Shown: positions 7,679 to 26,218 of the stretch, piece after piece
Position numbering within the stretch: position 1 is the first letter of the stretch
Layout: each line of letters opens with the position of its first letter
DNA from: an uncultured Armatimonadetes bacterium
Lineage (GTDB): Bacteria > Armatimonadota > Armatimonadia > Armatimonadales > Capsulimonadaceae
DNA: 64,000 nt
Reading direction: 5' to 3'
Assembly (NCBI GenBank): GCA_963835235.1
Contig: CAWIET010000003.1
Location: 182,960-246,959 of the forward strand
The notes under the pieces: model-generated
What the model saw: the letters and a program-made list of their open reading frames with translations, nothing else
Told to the model about the DNA's origin: nothing
The model's database searches: none
Position numbers and translations under genes: made by a program

Positions 7679-8162
7679 AATTAACTTCAGTCGAGCCGTG
7701 TTCGCGCTGGCGGCGAGCCTCATTTTCTGCGTCGGCAGACCTTCCCTGGCACAAGCAAACATCACGCAAAGCGATCCCCTCGTGACGCGCTTTTATGACC
7801 ATGACCCGCTGCAAGTCGTGGTGACTTATGACCCGGACGGCCACCAGATTCACGCGCTCATTATACGCGCCTGCGACGCCTCCAGCAAGTTGGATGTCAA
7901 CGTGACGGTTCCCGGCCAGCCCCCGCAGAGCGCTCAACTGATGCAGGGACAACTCGGCCATCTCACCATTCCCTGCATTGTGGGCGGCGCATACAGCATC
8001 ACCATCGTGCTGGAAGCCACCGTGAACGGCGTCACCAAAACGACTTACCTTCCCCTGCTTGTCACCTGCGGGCAGCGCGACGCTGGTCGCCATCACCATC
8101 ACTACCATCAGCATCACTTCCGGCATTTCCGCCAAAGCCGCCCGAAACGCCCCGGCTCCTAA
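7665..8162 (+). CDS. small secreted protein with a His-rich C-terminal tail, unknown function
   Basis: Signal-peptide-like N-terminus (MHRIKINFSRAVFALAASLIFCVGRPSLAQA) with AGGAG 10 nt upstream. The tail is GRHHHHYHQHHFRHFRQ. The start overlaps the stop of the upstream gene. Confidence 0.55.
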   Translation: MHRIKINFSRAVFALAASLIFCVGRPSLAQANITQSDPLVTRFYDHDPLQVVVTYDPDGHQIHALIIRACDASSKLDVNVTVPGQPPQSAQLMQGQLGHLTIPCIVGGAYSITIVLEATVNGVTKTTYLPLLVTCGQRDAGRHHHHYHQHHFRHFRQSRPKRPGS

Positions 8163-20187: not shown

Positions 20188-21318
20188 TTATTGCCGGGCC
20201 ACCTGCCCTGCCGTCACCTCATACACGCAGGCGCGCTCTAAAACGCCTTTGGAGAACGCCCGCAAATTCGTGCAGGACAGAAACGTTTGGGAACCGGCGC
20301 GGGCAGTGAGGTCAAACAAATGGCGGCGGCGGGCATCGTCCAAATCCGACAGCACATCGTCTAACAGCAGCAGGGGCGGCTCTCCGACCAGTTCTTCAAG
20401 GAGTTGCCGCTCCGCCAGTTTCAGCGACAATGCGACCGTGCGCTGCTGCCCCTGCGACCCAAACGCGCGGCAGTCCTGCCCGTTGACGCAGAACAGAATA
20501 TCGTCGCGCTGCGGCCCACGCAAAGTCGTGCCGCGCGCCAGTTCATCCGAAGCCACCGCGTTTAACGCCTCTGAGAAACGAGCGCCAATGGCATCGGCGT
20601 CGGTCAACTCATCCAGCGAAAACGAGGGAACATACGCCACTTGCAGCGTGTCTCGTCCATCGCTGAGGGTGTGATGCACGCCCTCCGCCAGCTGCGACAG
20701 CCGTTCCAGAAACAAACGCCGCCGTTCTATCAAACGCGCCCCATGCTGCACCAGCTGGGCATTCCAGGCGGGCAGAGACCCACGCGCTTCGTGCCCCGCA
20801 CGCCCATCACGCAAATCTCTCAAGAGGCGATTGCGCTGCTCCAATGCCTTGCGGAACGCGCCGAGCGCATACACATAACGAGGGGAAGTTTGGGCAATCT
20901 CCAAGTCCAGAAAGCGGCGGCGCACGGATGGCTCACCCCGAATAATCTCCAGGTCGCCGCTGTCAAACAACACGGCGTTCACCTGCCCAATCACTTCGGC
21001 TAGTTTGGTGTGCCGCACGCCATTGATGCGCGCCGCCTTCTTTTCCGTCTGGGACAGGAGCATCTCCAAAGCGATGTCGGGCGACTGCACGCGCACCACA
21101 TCGGCTCGCACACGCGCGAACGGCTGCTCAAACTGCACCAGTTCGGTGTCTTTGGCCGCCCGTGCCGACTTGCTCGTCGCCAGCACGTACAGGCTCTCTA
21201 ACAGATTGCTCTTGCCCTGCGCGTTGCGCCCGACAAAGATATTCAATCCCTCTCCCGGCTCCACGCGAAGAGAAGCATAGTTGCGAAAGTGTTCCAGTTC
21301 CAGCGACGTAATATGCAT
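20188..21318 (-). CDS. recF: DNA replication and repair protein RecF
   Basis: MHITSLELEHFRNY...FVGRNAQGKSNLLESL (Walker A), signature LSQGQQRTVALSLKLA, Walker B LLLLDDVLSDLD. Confidence 0.95.
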   Translation of the reverse strand: MHITSLELEHFRNYASLRVEPGEGLNIFVGRNAQGKSNLLESLYVLATSKSARAAKDTELVQFEQPFARVRADVVRVQSPDIALEMLLSQTEKKAARINGVRHTKLAEVIGQVNAVLFDSGDLEIIRGEPSVRRRFLDLEIAQTSPRYVYALGAFRKALEQRNRLLRDLRDGRAGHEARGSLPAWNAQLVQHGARLIERRRLFLERLSQLAEGVHHTLSDGRDTLQVAYVPSFSLDELTDADAIGARFSEALNAVASDELARGTTLRGPQRDDILFCVNGQDCRAFGSQGQQRTVALSLKLAERQLLEELVGEPPLLLLDDVLSDLDDARRRHLFDLTARAGSQTFLSCTNLRAFSKGVLERACVYEVTAGQVARQ

Positions 21319-21412
21319 TCACGTTCTCAGGCGAAATGGACTTGCTCTGCGCTCCGCCTCCGAGTCTTTTACCCTTAGATAGAAGAATCTTAATTGGTAG
21401 TAGTAATAGAAG

Positions 21413-21675
21413 TGTGACTCAACTGTGACTCAACGAAACGCACCCATGCGAACGGGACGTTTTCGCCTGCAAACCCTACACATTCACGCTTGCACGAACA
21501 TCGCAGCCGCTGATAATGCTCCGTTTCGCTGAGTCACAAGAGAGTCACACAGTGTGACTCAACGGCACAAAACTGTGACTCAACGCTGCCCACTGTGACT
21601 CTCTTCCACCCTTGAGTCACACTTTCCCACGTTGAGTCACAGTTGAGTCACACTGTGACTCTCAATTGTGACTCA
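21413..21675. repeat. 12 copies of the 9-mer TGAGTCACA/TGTGACTCA (9 perfect, 3 with one mismatch), in both orientations
   Basis: Starts at 21413, 21424, 21553, 21574, 21594, 21654 and 21667 (TGTGACTCA-type on +). Starts at 21530, 21541, 21613, 21633 and 21644 (TGAGTCACA-type on +). Three same-orientation pairs are exactly 11 bp apart. Confidence 0.9.
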
Positions 21676-21700
21676 ATATCTCGCCTTGATATTGTCCCCG

Positions 21701-21820
21701 AAGTCAGGCCCAAGTCGCCCTAAGTTCACGCAAGTCACCGCAAGTCAATGCAAGTTAACGCAAGTGATATCAAGTGAAATGAAGTGATCACAAGTGATCA
21801 CAAGTGAACACAAGGTAAAA
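21701..21820. repeat. about 12 tandem 10-bp units NCAAGTNANN, with AAGT in strict 10-bp phase
   Basis: AAGT at 21701, 21712, 21722, 21732, 21742, 21752, 21762, 21772, 21782, 21792 and 21802, then AAGG at 21812. The units become more AT-rich toward 21820. Confidence 0.9.
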
Positions 21821-21950
21821 ACAGCCTTTGTCTGCCGAAAATCAGCCCGTTTGTCTGCTCCTAAGAGCGAACACAGGCGCCGTTGTCTACTATGCGTTTG
21901 GCCCGGTTGTCAAACACTGTCCCCTTCGCTGTGGACAAGGCCCCCACTCG

Positions 21951-22058
21951 GAAGGGCGACCCTCCCCCCACGTTTAGGGGGAAGGGTAAGACAAGCAAAG
22001 CGCAGCAGGGTTTCCTCCCCCCAAACTTGGGGGGCCGGGGGGGCCGTCCTTCCCCTGC
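21951..22058. repeat. GC-rich palindromic repeat element, copy B; same family as the insert in dapF
   Basis: GAAGGGCGACCCTCCCCCCACGTTTAGGGGGAAGGGTAAGACAA aligns at roughly 80% identity by eye with 61941-61984. It is followed by the hairpin CCCCCCAAACTTGGGGGG. Confidence 0.6.
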
Positions 22059-24854
22059 CTACAGGCTGTATTCAATCACCTTGCGAATGCGAGTCAGCAG
22101 GGCCAGCACTTCCGGGTCGGTCGTCATGTCGTCGCGCAGGCGGGCGTGGGCGTGGACAATCGCTGTGTGGCTTTTGAGGCCAAACGCCGCCGCCAGCGTC
22201 GTCATCGGCACCCCGCTCATCTCCTTGACGAAATACATCGCCACCTGACGCGCATACCCCGCGTCCCCTTTGCCGCGCCGCGCCGAACGCGCCCCGCCTG
22301 TCAGAATCAGTTCCGGCTCAATGCCCATCTGCGCGGCAACGGCATCCACAATCTGGTCAACTGTCGGCCCCGCGCTGGGGCGCGACGCGGGGTAATCGTC
22401 CGGGTGCGCTGATGCGAGCGGCAGGGAAGACGATGGCAGACGCTCCACAAAGTACGATGACAGCACATCGGACGCCAGTTGTTTGGTGACCGGGCTTTTG
22501 GCAAGCGACGCATACGCCATCAGTTTAATCAGCGCGCCCTCCAATGCCCGAATATTGCTTTGGATCAGGTTCGCCATGTACGCAATCACTTCATCCGGGA
22601 TACGCAGATTGTCTAAAATCGCCTTCTTCTGCAAGATCGCCATCCGCATTTCCAGTTCGGGAGGCGCAATGTCGGCAATCAAACCGCCCTCAAAGCGGGT
22701 GCGAAGCCGCTCGTCCATCGTGCGAAGTTCACGCGGAGAGCGGTCGGACGTAATCACAATCTGCCGGTTCATCTGGTGCAGCGTGTTGAACGTGTGAAAG
22801 AACTCTTCTTTGGTCTGCTCTTTGGACGCGATGGTCTGAATGTCGTCTACCAGCCACACGTCTACCGACCGGTACGCCCTGCGAAAATCCTCCGTGCGCT
22901 TGTCCCGCAGCGCCGCAACGTAATGATTGGTGAACGTCTCCCCGCTCACATACGCCACCCGCGCCTGCGGAAGCGCCAGCCGCACCTGATGACCAATCGC
23001 GTGCATGAGATGCGTGTTGTGCTCCCAGAACGTTGTCAGGAACGTCTCATAACCTGGCACTTCAATGGCAACCGTTGGCTCCACGCCCGCAGGCTCCACC
23101 GACACGACCTTCTCCCAGCGCAGTCCGGCGGGGGCTGCCGTATGACGCCACTGTCCCCGATTGGGCCGCGTCGCCGCCACTTGTTCCGCTACGCCTCGCA
23201 CGCGCTCCACCGCGTCTTCCTTGCCAAAGATGCCCACGCGCGCGGTAAACTGAAGCACTTGCGCGGCGGCATGAATGGCAACTGTCCAGGCCCGCACTTT
23301 GGGTTTGTGCGCGATGCGCGACACAATGCCCAGTTTCAGCAGCAACTCCTGCACGTCGCGCGCCAGCCCTTCCGACGCCGAGCAGTAGCCGATTTCCGTT
23401 CGCGGAAGACGGTTGCCCGGACGCTCCGCGCCGCACGCCGCCCAGCCATCGGTGGCGAACAAACGCGACAGGAACAAGGCCAACTGCTCCGGCGGCAGGG
23501 TAAATACAGCGGGCGGAATGCGTTTGTCGCGCGAGTGCTGCCCCATCAAACCGTGCCGTCTCAGCAGGTTTATCACATCATTGCGGCAGTCCTGACCCTG
23601 CGCCACGCGCCCGCGCCGCCCGACAATGCGCCAATCATAGCGGTTGTGCTGAATCAGGCGGCAATTCGTCTGTGCCACGCACTCCTTGAACTCCGCCAAC
23701 TGCGCGTTGTCCTGCTGGCTGAAGCGCACGCCTTGCGTAGTGCCGCCATCGCCAATCAAATACGCCAGCAGCTTCACTTCATGCTCCGGCAGGGATACGG
23801 GAGAGCCAAACGCAGGCAGGCATTCCGTCACCGCGACTAAATCCCCTGCCGCAATCGCGCAAAGGGGCGTCCATCCGCGCACCGCGATGCGCCCAAAGTT
23901 CTTGCCCATATGCCGCACACCCTGCCCCGTCCAGAGTGGGTGCTGTCCGTTGCGCCTAATCCGCCGCCCGCTTTCGGTTTCAATTGCCCACACCGGCTCA
24001 ACGGCATTCCATTCGGCGCGCGCGGCAACGGCCTTTATCTCTTCTTTAGCAAGCGTCAGCAGAGAAAACTCTGTACCCACCAACTCGCCTGCCTGCACCC
24101 GCCGCCCATCCGCCAGGTGCAGGGTTTCCGACGCGGCCACGCACTTTCCCAGGCCGGGATTGCCGTACAAAAACAGTGGGTTATACAGGGTTCCGAGCGC
24201 ACCGGCCACCGCCAGCGCGCCCGCATGAGCGAGCCGGTTGGACTTGCCCACGACAAAGTGCTCAAACGTGTATTTGTCGTTGAGCGGCGCGGCGGCCAGT
24301 TCCAGCAGAAACGGATTGCGCGCGCCTTCGGCAAGCCCCAGCGCGACGGCGGTTCCGCCATTGCCGCCATGCGTGGGCGCGGCGAAGGGAAGCGTCTCTT
24401 GCAGCGGCGCGAGGGCTGTGACAGGCGGCGCAAGCGCCGTCACAGGCGGCTCTGCCAGCGGCGACGCGGCCTGCTGCAAGGGCAGCGGCTTTTCGCCCAG
24501 CAAGGGCTGCACGGACGGGGTGGAAATGACAAACCGAACCTGCACGGCAGGCAGGTCAAGAAACTGCGCCAGCGACGCGCTGAGTATCTGCGCGTACTTC
24601 TTTTCCGCCCATTCCCGCGCAAACGCCGACGGCGCTCCGAGCACCACAATCGTTCCGTCCAAAGAAAGCGGCTTCAGGGGACGCAGAAAGTTGTCAAATG
24701 TCGGCTTGTTGAACTGAGAAGCCAGCGCGCGCAGGGTGCGATCCCACGCTTTACGCAGGGCGATGGCGCTGTCATCTTCACCGAGTTCCAATTGCTGCTC
24801 CTGCGGAGAAGGGTCATCATCGGGCGCGGCAGCATGGGGCGGGCGAATAGTCAC
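22059..24854 (-). CDS. dnaA: chromosomal replication initiator DnaA, containing an intein in the Walker-A loop
   Basis: Domain I/II N-terminus, then FEHFVVGKSNRLAH and LFLYGNPGLGK|[intein]|THLMHAIGH. Further motifs are DVWLVDDIQTIASK (Walker B), FHTFNTL, IVITSDR and domain IV (YARQVAMYFVKEM...FGLKSHTAIVHA). The linker has a PPVTALA duplication. The gene ends in TAG. Confidence 0.95.
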   Translation of the reverse strand: MTIRPPHAAAPDDDPSPQEQQLELGEDDSAIALRKAWDRTLRALASQFNKPTFDNFLRPLKPLSLDGTIVVLGAPSAFAREWAEKKYAQILSASLAQFLDLPAVQVRFVISTPSVQPLLGEKPLPLQQAASPLAEPPVTALAPPVTALAPLQETLPFAAPTHGGNGGTAVALGLAEGARNPFLLELAAAPLNDKYTFEHFVVGKSNRLAHAGALAVAGALGTLYNPLFLYGNPGLGKCVAASETLHLADGRRVQAGELVGTEFSLLTLAKEEIKAVAARAEWNAVEPVWAIETESGRRIRRNGQHPLWTGQGVRHMGKNFGRIAVRGWTPLCAIAAGDLVAVTECLPAFGSPVSLPEHEVKLLAYLIGDGGTTQGVRFSQQDNAQLAEFKECVAQTNCRLIQHNRYDWRIVGRRGRVAQGQDCRNDVINLLRRHGLMGQHSRDKRIPPAVFTLPPEQLALFLSRLFATDGWAACGAERPGNRLPRTEIGYCSASEGLARDVQELLLKLGIVSRIAHKPKVRAWTVAIHAAAQVLQFTARVGIFGKEDAVERVRGVAEQVAATRPNRGQWRHTAAPAGLRWEKVVSVEPAGVEPTVAIEVPGYETFLTTFWEHNTHLMHAIGHQVRLALPQARVAYVSGETFTNHYVAALRDKRTEDFRRAYRSVDVWLVDDIQTIASKEQTKEEFFHTFNTLHQMNRQIVITSDRSPRELRTMDERLRTRFEGGLIADIAPPELEMRMAILQKKAILDNLRIPDEVIAYMANLIQSNIRALEGALIKLMAYASLAKSPVTKQLASDVLSSYFVERLPSSSLPLASAHPDDYPASRPSAGPTVDQIVDAVAAQMGIEPELILTGGARSARRGKGDAGYARQVAMYFVKEMSGVPMTTLAAAFGLKSHTAIVHAHARLRDDMTTDPEVLALLTRIRKVIEYSL
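23016..24143 (-). mobile_element. 376-aa intein with a LAGLIDADG homing-endonuclease domain inserted after Lys237 of DnaA
   Basis: It begins with Cys (GLGK|CVAASETLHLADG) and ends ...TFLTTFWEHN|T, with Thr as the +1 extein residue, which restores GLGKT. The two LAGLIDADG motifs are KLLAYLIGDGG and LFLSRLFATDGWA. A block-B-like segment is NGQHPLWT. Confidence 0.85.
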
Positions 24855-24988: not shown

Positions 24989-25534
24989 TTATCCGCCTAC
25001 GACGGCACGTGCGGCTTGCAGCACGGCCTCATAATCCGGCTCCGTCGCCACTTCTGGCACGGTCTGAATGTAGCGAATAACCCCGTCTTTGTCTATCAAA
25101 TAGATGGCGCGCGCCAGCAAACCCAACTCTTTGATACGCACGCCATAGTCATCCGCCAGCGCCCGGTCTTTGTGGTCGGACAGCATTTGCAGATGGTCAA
25201 TCTTCTCCTGCGTCGCCCACCGTTTCTGCGCGAACGGCGTATCCGCGCTCACTGCCGCCACCGCAATTCTGTCGGCGGGCAGCGACGCCACATGGCGGTT
25301 AAACTTGCCCGTCTCAAGCGCGCACACGCTGGTGTCAATAGACGGCACCATAATCAAAAGCACCGCTTTCTTGCCGCCTTCCGATAAATCGGCGAGCGAC
25401 ACCGGACGCAAATCCGACGCCGCCAGCACAAACTCCGGGGCTGTGTCGCCGACTTTAAGTTCCGTGCCGACCAGCGTCATCGGCACGCCCTTGAACGTAA
25501 TCGCGGCAGGTCTTTCTTGCGCTTGTGCAGTCAT
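24989..25534 (-). CDS. tpx: thiol peroxidase (Tpx-type peroxiredoxin)
   Basis: ITFKGVPMTLVGTELKVGDTAPEF, VPSIDTSVCALE (peroxidatic Cys) and PFAQKRW. The start was trimmed to the ATG at 25534. Confidence 0.85.
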   Translation of the reverse strand: MTAQAQERPAAITFKGVPMTLVGTELKVGDTAPEFVLAASDLRPVSLADLSEGGKKAVLLIMVPSIDTSVCALETGKFNRHVASLPADRIAVAAVSADTPFAQKRWATQEKIDHLQMLSDHKDRALADDYGVRIKELGLLARAIYLIDKDGVIRYIQTVPEVATEPDYEAVLQAARAVVGG

Positions 25535-25630
25535 GGGCCGTGTTCTCCTTCTCGCTCTTGTCCCCATAGTATACCCGCCGATACGTCCCGGCAGGAAACG
25601 CAGTCGGGTGCGGCGAAAGGGAAGCGCGCA

Positions 25631-26218
25631 ATGGTCTACTACATCTACAGTGTCTTTGCTTTCGGCTTTTTGGCTGGTGCGCTTTTCTTCAAGGGCTACA
25701 ATCAGGGAAGTTACTTGGCCCGCTCTGATGAGCACGTTCTAAGTTTTCACAGGCCCCGACTGATGCGGCTTGGCAGTGGAATGTGTGGACTGCTTTTTCT
25801 CGCGGGAGCCGTGTTTATTGTTTTTGACCCAAACCACATTTACTCCGGCCAAAGTGATGTTTCTTTTAAGTGGATTATGGGCGTGATGCTTCCGTTTGTC
25901 GCGTCTTTCTTTTTCTTCATGGCTAACCCACAAGAGGTTCGGGTGGATTTGGACACGCGCCTCTGCCACCAAACTTCTGGCTGGATACTTCGCCCCAAAC
26001 AGCGCACTGCTGCGCTCACCGGGGCGTCTCTGGTGGGAGTGATACCCAGTCAAATCTACATTGTCACTTTAATGATTGGGGGCGGGAAGAACTGCAATGT
26101 CACAATCGGCCAATTTCCTGTTTTGCCGATGGCGCTTGCGTTTGCTCAAGAGATGGGAAACAAACTCCATCTGCCTTTTCAGCAAATCACGGAAGCAGAC
26201 TTGATCTCGTTGAGTTAA
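25631..26218 (+). CDS. hypothetical membrane protein in a lower-GC segment
   Basis: Two to four hydrophobic helices (YYIYSVFAFGFLAGALFF, GLLFLAGAVFIVF, IMGVMLPFVASFFFFM). One line counted by hand gave about 48% GC. Confidence 0.45.
   Translation: MVYYIYSVFAFGFLAGALFFKGYNQGSYLARSDEHVLSFHRPRLMRLGSGMCGLLFLAGAVFIVFDPNHIYSGQSDVSFKWIMGVMLPFVASFFFFMANPQEVRVDLDTRLCHQTSGWILRPKQRTAALTGASLVGVIPSQIYIVTLMIGGGKNCNVTIGQFPVLPMALAFAQEMGNKLHLPFQQITEADLISLS

Follow-up and report, generated by a model that had tools for sequence, protein, structure and literature searches.

Inteins concentrate in the ATPases of the replisome, with DnaB, MCM, clamp loaders, RecA/RadA, and polymerases as hosts. Their commonest insertion site is the P-loop (PMC4513877). 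The precursor containing the P-loop intein of RadA is without ATPase function, and its splicing is modulated by the native exteins (PMC4513877, PMC6195587). The P-loop intein DnaBi1 of Mycobacterium smegmatis can gate an essential replication ATPase (PMC6195587). In the top-host list of the largest survey (Novikova et al. 2016), Armatimonadetes are entered with ribonucleotide reductase only, and DnaA and DnaC are both absent from its main text and its top-15 table of bacterial hosts, an entry confined to the supplement being possible. Here, we describe an insertion in the gene of the replication initiator DnaA, which lies on a 64,000-nucleotide stretch from an uncultured Armatimonadetes bacterium of the Capsulimonadaceae (contig CAWIET010000003.1, positions 182,960 to 246,959; called the window hereafter). 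On the basis of its sequence and a structure model, we are highly confident that this insertion is a canonical class 1 intein with a LAGLIDADG homing endonuclease, and that it interrupts the Walker A loop in frame, after Lys237 and ahead of Thr614 (GxxGxGK↓T, where the arrow marks a splice junction).

A literature search found the phrase "DnaA intein" in no paper, the co-mentions of intein and DnaA that were examined contained none of relevance, and further literature searches were likewise negative. These searches and the main text of the 2016 survey agree with the sequence-only reading, an earlier note on this DNA made without databases, in which DnaA was not counted among the well-known intein hosts. 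The source annotations name the proteins concerned plain DnaA or nothing, with no intein label on these products of 830–1000 aa. DnaA does not appear as an intein host in the surveys and papers that are searchable and is, to that extent, a new one. The type of element, its fold, the P-loop class of site, and its evolutionary behaviour are textbook matters. A split DnaA P-loop would put the first step of chromosome replication downstream of protein splicing, which offers a natural system for testing if splicing can gate initiation.

The insertion in the Walker A loop of DnaA

The dnaA open reading frame (ORF) occupies 22059–24854 on the minus strand (stop codon, 22059–22061) and, according to the ORF listing, encodes a 931-aa precursor from a GTG start. 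The N-extein (residues 1–237; 24144–24854, minus strand) comprises DnaA domains I–II and the start of the AAA+ domain and ends with the Walker A half GNPGLGK (residues 231–237; 24144–24164). It is followed by a 376-residue insertion of 41.4 kDa (residues 238–613; 23016–24143, minus strand), of which Cys238 is the first residue and His612-Asn613 the last two. The C-extein (residues 614–931; 22062–23015, minus strand) then starts with Thr614 at the +1 position (23013–23015), which begins THLMHAIGH. This arrangement had been proposed in the sequence-only reading, and it was exact to the base on re-derivation. When the 376 residues were removed, Bac_DnaA became one contiguous match over 1–161 of the 162 profile positions (E = 5e-66), and the resulting 555-aa protein was aligned gap-free with Bacillus subtilis DnaA (8btg, E = 4e-105). 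In this alignment GLGKTHLMHAIGH is identical in the two proteins, and Walker A, Walker B, sensor I, sensor II, and box VII are all matched, which bears out the earlier claim that excision restores the P-loop motif with Thr at +1. The masses computed for spliced DnaA and the intein are 60.4 and 41.4 kDa, close to the approximately 61 and 42 kDa first estimated.

Homologues running through this segment without a gap would have spoken against an intein; they were not observed, because intein-free DnaA proteins of the Capsulimonadaceae/Armatimonadales and of B. subtilis align with a clean 376-aa gap opposite the insertion. Intein-free alleles of the same bacterial family are contiguous at the same codon boundary, for example the allele of locus L011, which reads TACGGCAATCCGGGATTGGGAAAA↓ACGCACCTAATGCACGCTATTGGT at the site, and no locus compared deviates from this junction at the codon level. 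An artefact of assembly or gene calling, in which a chimeric contig joins dnaA to an unrelated intein gene, is scarcely credible: the reading frame is continuous, and such an artefact is already refuted by the same architecture in 30 clusters (90% identity) from independent assemblies, including closed chromosomes.

The precursor scored 393 bits against TIGR00362 DnaA (cutoff 343.9) with the insert still present, and Pfam detected DnaA_N, Bac_DnaA in two separated stretches, Bac_DnaA_C, and LAGLIDADG_3 on the 931-aa protein. The C-extein carries Walker B as VDVWLVDDIQ (22836–22865), sensor I, box VII, sensor II, and DNA-binding domain IV. From this equivalog-level match and the presence of domains I, III (AAA+), and IV, the host gene is identified as that of the DnaA chromosomal replication initiator. 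The public gene call P0001 gives a protein of 910 aa that starts at an internal TTG, codon 22 (region 24789–24854). The GTG at 24854 was favoured over this TTG because a GAGGA Shine-Dalgarno sequence is located 3 nt upstream of it and because the peptide PDDxPxPQEQQLELGE, which is encoded upstream of the TTG of P0001, is conserved in homologues. The residue numbering of the sequence-only reading, which was counted from this GTG, is sound for the same two reasons. A 21-bp tandem repeat (24404–24450, 2.2 copies) encodes PPVTALA twice in the domain II linker, the length of which varies among DnaA homologues.

The N-terminal splicing (HINT) lobe of the insertion corresponds to intein residues 1–116 (23796–24143) and contains block A CVAASETLHLADG (24105–24143, with Cys1 at 24141–24143) and block B GRRIRRNGQHPLW (23931–23969). 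The C-terminal splicing lobe corresponds to intein residues 337–376 (23016–23135) and contains block F TVAIEVPGYETFLT (23034–23075) and block G TFWEHN (23016–23033), all of these being on the minus strand. An AlphaFold2 model of the insert, computed from 31 aligned sequences, showed a predicted local distance difference test score (pLDDT) of 92.3 and a predicted template modelling score (pTM) of 0.92. In this model residues 1–106 and 341–375 form all-beta lobes, with an alpha/beta domain at approximately 120–334. The top matches of a Foldseek search of the model against the PDB were all inteins with homing endonucleases, namely TliVMA (7qsu, E = 6e-19), PhoVMA, 2cw7 (intein homing endonuclease II), PI-PfuI, and PI-SceI, and lower in the list were free LAGLIDADG enzymes and mini-inteins (Ssp/Npu DnaB and Mxe GyrA). 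The modelled intein and LAGLIDADG fold of the insertion thus matches solved intein-endonuclease structures. Furthermore, the insert aligned with the intein part of the NCBIfam DnaB model PRK07773 (columns 398–707, E = 4e-41) and with those of GyrA_w_intein (2e-13) and the RecA intein model (8e-11), and a PDB sequence search with the intein gave weak matches, to DnaB mini-inteins only. Cys1, Asn65 and His68 of block B, His375, Asn376, and Thr+1 are invariant in 36/36 DnaA inteins, and both splicing lobes are highly conserved in the alignment of these 36 sequences. Thr is accepted as an intein +1 residue (PMC4513877).

Several points weigh against this assignment, to which the saturated synonymous distances, the host-like base composition, and the basis of the single-copy count, given below with the data concerned, also belong. 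The curated HINT profiles stayed sub-threshold on the insert, as Pfam Intein_splicing gave an E value of 0.016 (15.4 bits vs 35.8) and TIGR01445 gave 15.9 bits vs 24.5. A profile check for both domains had been proposed beforehand; its LAGLIDADG half was positive (Pfam LAGLIDADG_3, E = 7e-12, 45.9 bits vs a cutoff of 22.5), and its HINT half was negative. Since the curated HINT profiles alone were sub-threshold, intein membership was settled by structure prediction and Foldseek. In addition, block B reads NxxH in all 36 DnaA inteins, with Asn at the Thr position of the consensus TxxH, and all of them have Ala at block F position 4 (TVAVEV or TVAIEV). Asp is usual at this position in class 1 inteins, where it is common, not universal, and no strict defining feature. 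The same Ala is found in the inteins of the DnaC-like relatives described below. Taken together, sequence and model indicate that the insert is very probably a genuine class 1 intein that is competent for splicing.

Two other element types were rejected. Class 3 inteins are marked by the motif WCT (Trp at block B position 12, Cys at block F position 4, and Thr at block G position 5) and have neither Cys1 nor Ser1; the insert has Cys1, Ala at block F position 4, and Leu at block B position 12. A bacterial intein-like (BIL) domain was rejected on the Cys1, the terminal His-Asn, the conserved +1 nucleophile, and the location of the insert inside a conserved motif.

In the proposed mechanism, dnaA would be translated as the 931-aa precursor with a split P-loop. 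Cys238 would undergo an N–S acyl shift to form a thioester, which the P-loop Thr614 would attack, taking over the N-extein by transesterification. Asn613, helped by His612, would then cyclise and free the 41-kDa intein, and an O–N shift would yield GNPGLGK-THLMHAIGH, the product being a DnaA of 555 aa in which the GNPGLGKTHL loop is restored. Because the P-loop is split in the precursor, the active initiator would be expected to form only after splicing, and, by analogy with the RadA precursor, DnaA-ATP presumably could not form before it. Partial activities of the precursor, such as box binding, are conceivable since its domains I and IV are intact; with these domains the unspliced protein could bind the origin or partners as a dominant-negative or a regulator.

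Endonuclease decay, distribution, and selection

The LAGLIDADG homing-endonuclease domain was assigned to intein residues ~117–336 (23136–23795, minus strand) from the LAGLIDADG_3 match and the fold of the model. Motif 1, KLLAYLIGDGG, is located at 23742–23774 and motif 2, LFLSRLFATDGWA, at 23439–23477, both on the minus strand. The two LAGLIDADG helices end in Asp (D132 and D232) in the window copy, and the two motifs of a full-size intein that were recognised in the sequence-only reading are both present, with both catalytic residues intact. Foldseek matched the domain to I-Tsp061I, I-DmoI, and I-OnuI. The endonuclease of the window copy is possibly still mobile: the freed intein would be a potential site-specific endonuclease, which would cut intein-free dnaA at the P-loop-coding DNA and be copied in by repair. 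Among the DnaA inteins the domain shows several different internal deletions, and the intein length ranges from 263 to 379 aa. The catalytic Asp of motif 1 is changed to Gly, Asn, Val, or Glu in 6/36 inteins and deleted in 5, and that of motif 2 is changed to Gly, Ser, or Glu in 9/36. In the DnaA intein of P0030, a low-complexity PSEGQEG repeat has taken the place of the first half of the endonuclease domain and the two splicing lobes are intact, which is an unusual route of endonuclease decay.

DnaA proteins interrupted at this point made up 30 clusters (90% identity) in a protein search, which also yielded many intein-free DnaA proteins of approximately 70–77% identity to the exteins. The intein-bearing clusters were drawn from NCBI, ENA, JGI, and Logan and include closed chromosomes of 3.96 and 4.14 Mb. 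In a scan of species-representative genomes, all intein-bearing DnaA proteins belonged to the Capsulimonadaceae/Armatimonadales of the Armatimonadota. The intein was found in 10 species (L001–L010, including the closed chromosomes OZ255718.1 and OZ241338.1), and 17 related loci and all Chthonomonadales loci were without it. At least 36 distinct DnaA inteins were collected at the same site from independent assemblies, comprising Capsulimonadaceae/Armatimonadales metagenome-assembled genomes and closed chromosomes. Judged by these loci, the DnaA intein is not unique to the window genome and is polymorphic across a whole bacterial family.

Ratios of nonsynonymous to synonymous substitution (dN/dS) were estimated by the Nei-Gojobori method and are rough because dS was saturated (≥1) in most pairs: they were 0.05–0.19 for the N-terminal and 0.01–0.14 for the C-terminal splicing lobe, and 0.004–0.3 for the exteins (0.004–0.125 for the AAA+ region of the C-extein). 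For the endonuclease domain, the same rough estimates were 0.04–0.16 between full-size copies, 0.12 for pairs with the window copy, and 0.25–0.27 where one partner was decayed. As the lobe values are low throughout, splicing is under purifying selection everywhere, and the endonuclease only where it is still complete.

The selection on splicing lobes in lineages with a deleted endonuclease could also speak for a domesticated regulatory intein, in which splicing conditional on redox, temperature, metal ions, or nutrients gates initiation. Such regulation would come in addition to the canonical intein and would explain its retention where the endonuclease has decayed. The non-consensus Ala at block F position 4 and Asn in block B, present in every copy, could slow or tune splicing, and conditional splicing has been seen in the P-loop inteins of RadA and mycobacterial DnaB (PMC4513877, PMC6195587). 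However, splicing should be kept under purifying selection in any intein whose host gene is essential, and such selection is no evidence for regulation. Intein-free alleles at 92–98.5% extein identity are common, and the host does well without the intein. There is also no conserved second Cys as an obvious redox partner, C254 in the endonuclease domain being the only near-invariant one besides C1. Domestication of this kind is unlikely, and slightly more so is the full claim that DnaA splicing is a conditional checkpoint on replication initiation and that the intein is kept for host benefit and not as a parasite. The locus would gain much in interest only if DnaA splicing were found to gate initiation conditionally.

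Whether the intein has a horizontal or vertical history was judged from identity correlations and a neighbour-joining tree. In this tree, built from 120 exteins, the 30 alleles with the intein are dispersed among those without it, and nearly all of the 30 have a neighbour at 92–98.5% extein identity that is free of the intein, for example in the pairs P0010/P0052 (98.5%) and P0016/P0081 (98.1%). The distances of inteins and exteins correlate (Spearman 0.57, Pearson 0.69), and in a few pairs, P0006 above all, the inteins are more alike than the exteins. The GC content at third codon positions (GC3) is 0.731 for the intein and 0.736 for the host extein, leaving no compositional trace of import. 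This pattern fits a homing cycle in which the intein has long resided in the family, has been passed on mainly vertically or locally, and has undergone decay of its endonuclease and precise loss; re-invasion of intein-free dnaA alleles is probably also part of this cycle.

The correlated distances, the equal GC3 of intein and host, and the obviously dead endonuclease of many lineages would also suit an immobile, vertically inherited intein, for which the endonuclease of the window copy is already inactive and the pattern reflects an ancient gain followed by repeated precise loss. We consider this a real but somewhat doubtful possibility. Both catalytic Asp residues are intact in the window copy, and the endonuclease dN/dS is as low as given above among full-size copies and for pairs with the window copy. 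In addition, precise loss is hard without an intein-free template, and some inteins, that of P0006 for example, are more alike than their exteins. Under the homing cycle, the intein is maintained as a presence/absence polymorphism, its endonuclease decaying repeatedly and whole copies being lost precisely. Alleles with a full-size intein, with a decayed endonuclease, and without the intein, some of them having exteins as much as 98.5% identical, provide a compact data set on this cycle in an essential single-copy gene.

The dnaA neighbourhood and a putative origin

A 740-bp intergenic region between dnaA and recF (21319–22058) is located directly downstream of dnaA. Its GC content is approximately 0.50–0.58 vs 0.61–0.65 in the flanking genes, and it contains 12 exact GAGTCACA boxes at 21413–21674, which occur in both orientations and often as TTGAGTCACA. 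About one such box is expected in the whole window, and none was found elsewhere in its 64 kb. The box cluster is kept downstream of dnaA in most Capsulimonadaceae-type loci (L001–L026 and L038), with or without the intein. The cumulative GC skew over 18–30 kb exhibited no sign switch at the intergenic region. Judged from its sequence, the region looks like an oriC with a lineage-specific variant of the DnaA box. The stretch that separates the box cluster from the dnaA stop codon holds an array of approximately 9 units with a strict 10-bp period at 21722–21814 (unit ~CAAGTGAACA; nnTCACTTGn on the gene strand), and this array may serve DNA unwinding or protein phasing at the putative origin. 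The usual order dnaA-dnaN-recF is broken, because recF (20188–21318, minus strand) directly follows the oriC-like region and no dnaN lies between dnaA and recF (20188–22058). Upstream of dnaA, a thiol peroxidase of the AhpC/TSA family is encoded at 24989–25735.

A single dnaA locus per genome, closed chromosomes included, was found by a peptide-pattern scan of species-representative genomes, and no second dnaA was found within the 64-kb window; the single-copy count is to be read as the result of that scan and that window. Adjoining the oriC-like box cluster, and with this arrangement conserved in relatives, the interrupted gene appears to be the true initiator. The sub-threshold HINT profiles might be taken as a sign of a dead insertion that does not splice, in which case this dnaA would be a pseudogene or encode a paralogue without ATPase function, and replication would be initiated by another protein. 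Such a situation is highly improbable: none of the splice-junction residues varies among the 36 sequences, purifying selection on the exteins is strong, as the dN/dS of the AAA+ part of the C-extein shows, every DnaA motif is preserved, the gene stands beside the conserved box cluster, and the scan returned one dnaA locus per genome.

Relatives in other hosts and comparison with known systems

An intein-only search located the closest non-DnaA relatives in AAA+ proteins of 520–655 aa, at 52–56% identity over 100% of the intein. These proteins are split at GDVGTGK↓C...WEHN↓THLAVAV, which is the homologous P-loop position, and the spliced AAA+ relative is a DnaC-like helicase loader (phrog_50, E = 3.5e-66). 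Two intein-bearing loaders are located at 8001–9848 of L040 and 8001–9866 of L041; as an intein host, the DnaC-like loader was likewise not encountered in the literature searched. One loader gene adjoins a DnaD/DnaB_2-like gene and SSB, and another adjoins a type IV secretion system (T4SS) coupling protein, Replic_Relax, and TraG; both loaders were assigned to mobile elements because their neighbours are a replication module or conjugation genes. The junction DNA reads GGGAAG↓ACGCATCTC in L040 vs GGAAAG↓ACGCATCTC in the window, the core matching at 14/15 nt. Furthermore, an exhaustive HMMER scan of 1.84 billion representative proteins gave 3178 intein relatives, 175 of them with E < 1e-30. The 150 best matches include one DnaA (P0006), and most of the remainder have xxGK↓C...(F/W/Y)EHN↓T/S junctions. 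Pfam gave no match on the exteins of the closest non-DnaA hosts, and PHROGs identified terminase large subunits: two of the closest relatives, at 57–59% identity, are such proteins once spliced (phrog_2). More distant relatives are located in the DnaB P-loop (P0152, MGK↓C...HN↓TSLCLNIA) and the DnaB H4 motif (P0155).

The DnaA intein thus belongs, as a single branch, to a large clade of P-loop inteins with GK↓T/S junctions, which are found mainly in phage and mobile-element genes. Ectopic homing from a phage or mobile-element gene is the most economical inference for its route of acquisition, and by that route it would probably have entered dnaA of a Capsulimonadaceae ancestor. The series of phage terminase, DnaC-like loader, and DnaA can show intein jumps between paralogous P-loops.

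In structure, the best matches are the VMA inteins (TliVMA 7qsu, PhoVMA 7qst, and PI-SceI 1vde) and PI-PfuI (1dq3), with Foldseek E values of 6e-19 to 1e-10 and template modelling (TM) scores of 0.54–0.68. They share with the DnaA intein a two-lobed HINT domain with an inserted LAGLIDADG endonuclease, but their identity is 12–18% and their hosts are an archaeal or yeast ATPase subunit or ribonucleotide reductase. The RadA intein of Pyrococcus horikoshii shares the site at the end of the Walker A loop and differs in its archaeal origin and recombinase host, and no close sequence relationship between this P-loop intein and the DnaA intein was seen in the comparisons made. DnaB inteins likewise reside in a replication protein. 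Those of the DnaB P-loop (P0152) have an MGK↓C...HN↓TS junction and are much more distant at 33% identity, whereas DnaBi1 of M. smegmatis is a class 3 mini-intein without an endonuclease, and the Mtu-type DnaB intein is located at the H4 motif, not at the P-loop (PMC6195587). The closest inteins by sequence are those of phage terminase large subunits (for example P0172 and P0174), at 51–59% identity across all 376 aa. Like the DnaA intein, they have GK↓C...(F/W/Y)EHN↓T/S junctions in the Walker A loop and the same LAGLIDADG endonuclease, and they differ in their host, which is a viral DNA-packaging ATPase, and in the flanking extein AVKxxHxxGK↓T/S. The inteins of the DnaC-like loaders (P0138–P0144; Pfam IstB_IS21), with identity at the level reported above, reside in a host of the same DnaA/DnaC/IstB group of AAA+ proteins and have a junction, GxGK↓THL, identical to that of DnaA, although this host is an accessory loader and not the chromosomal initiator.

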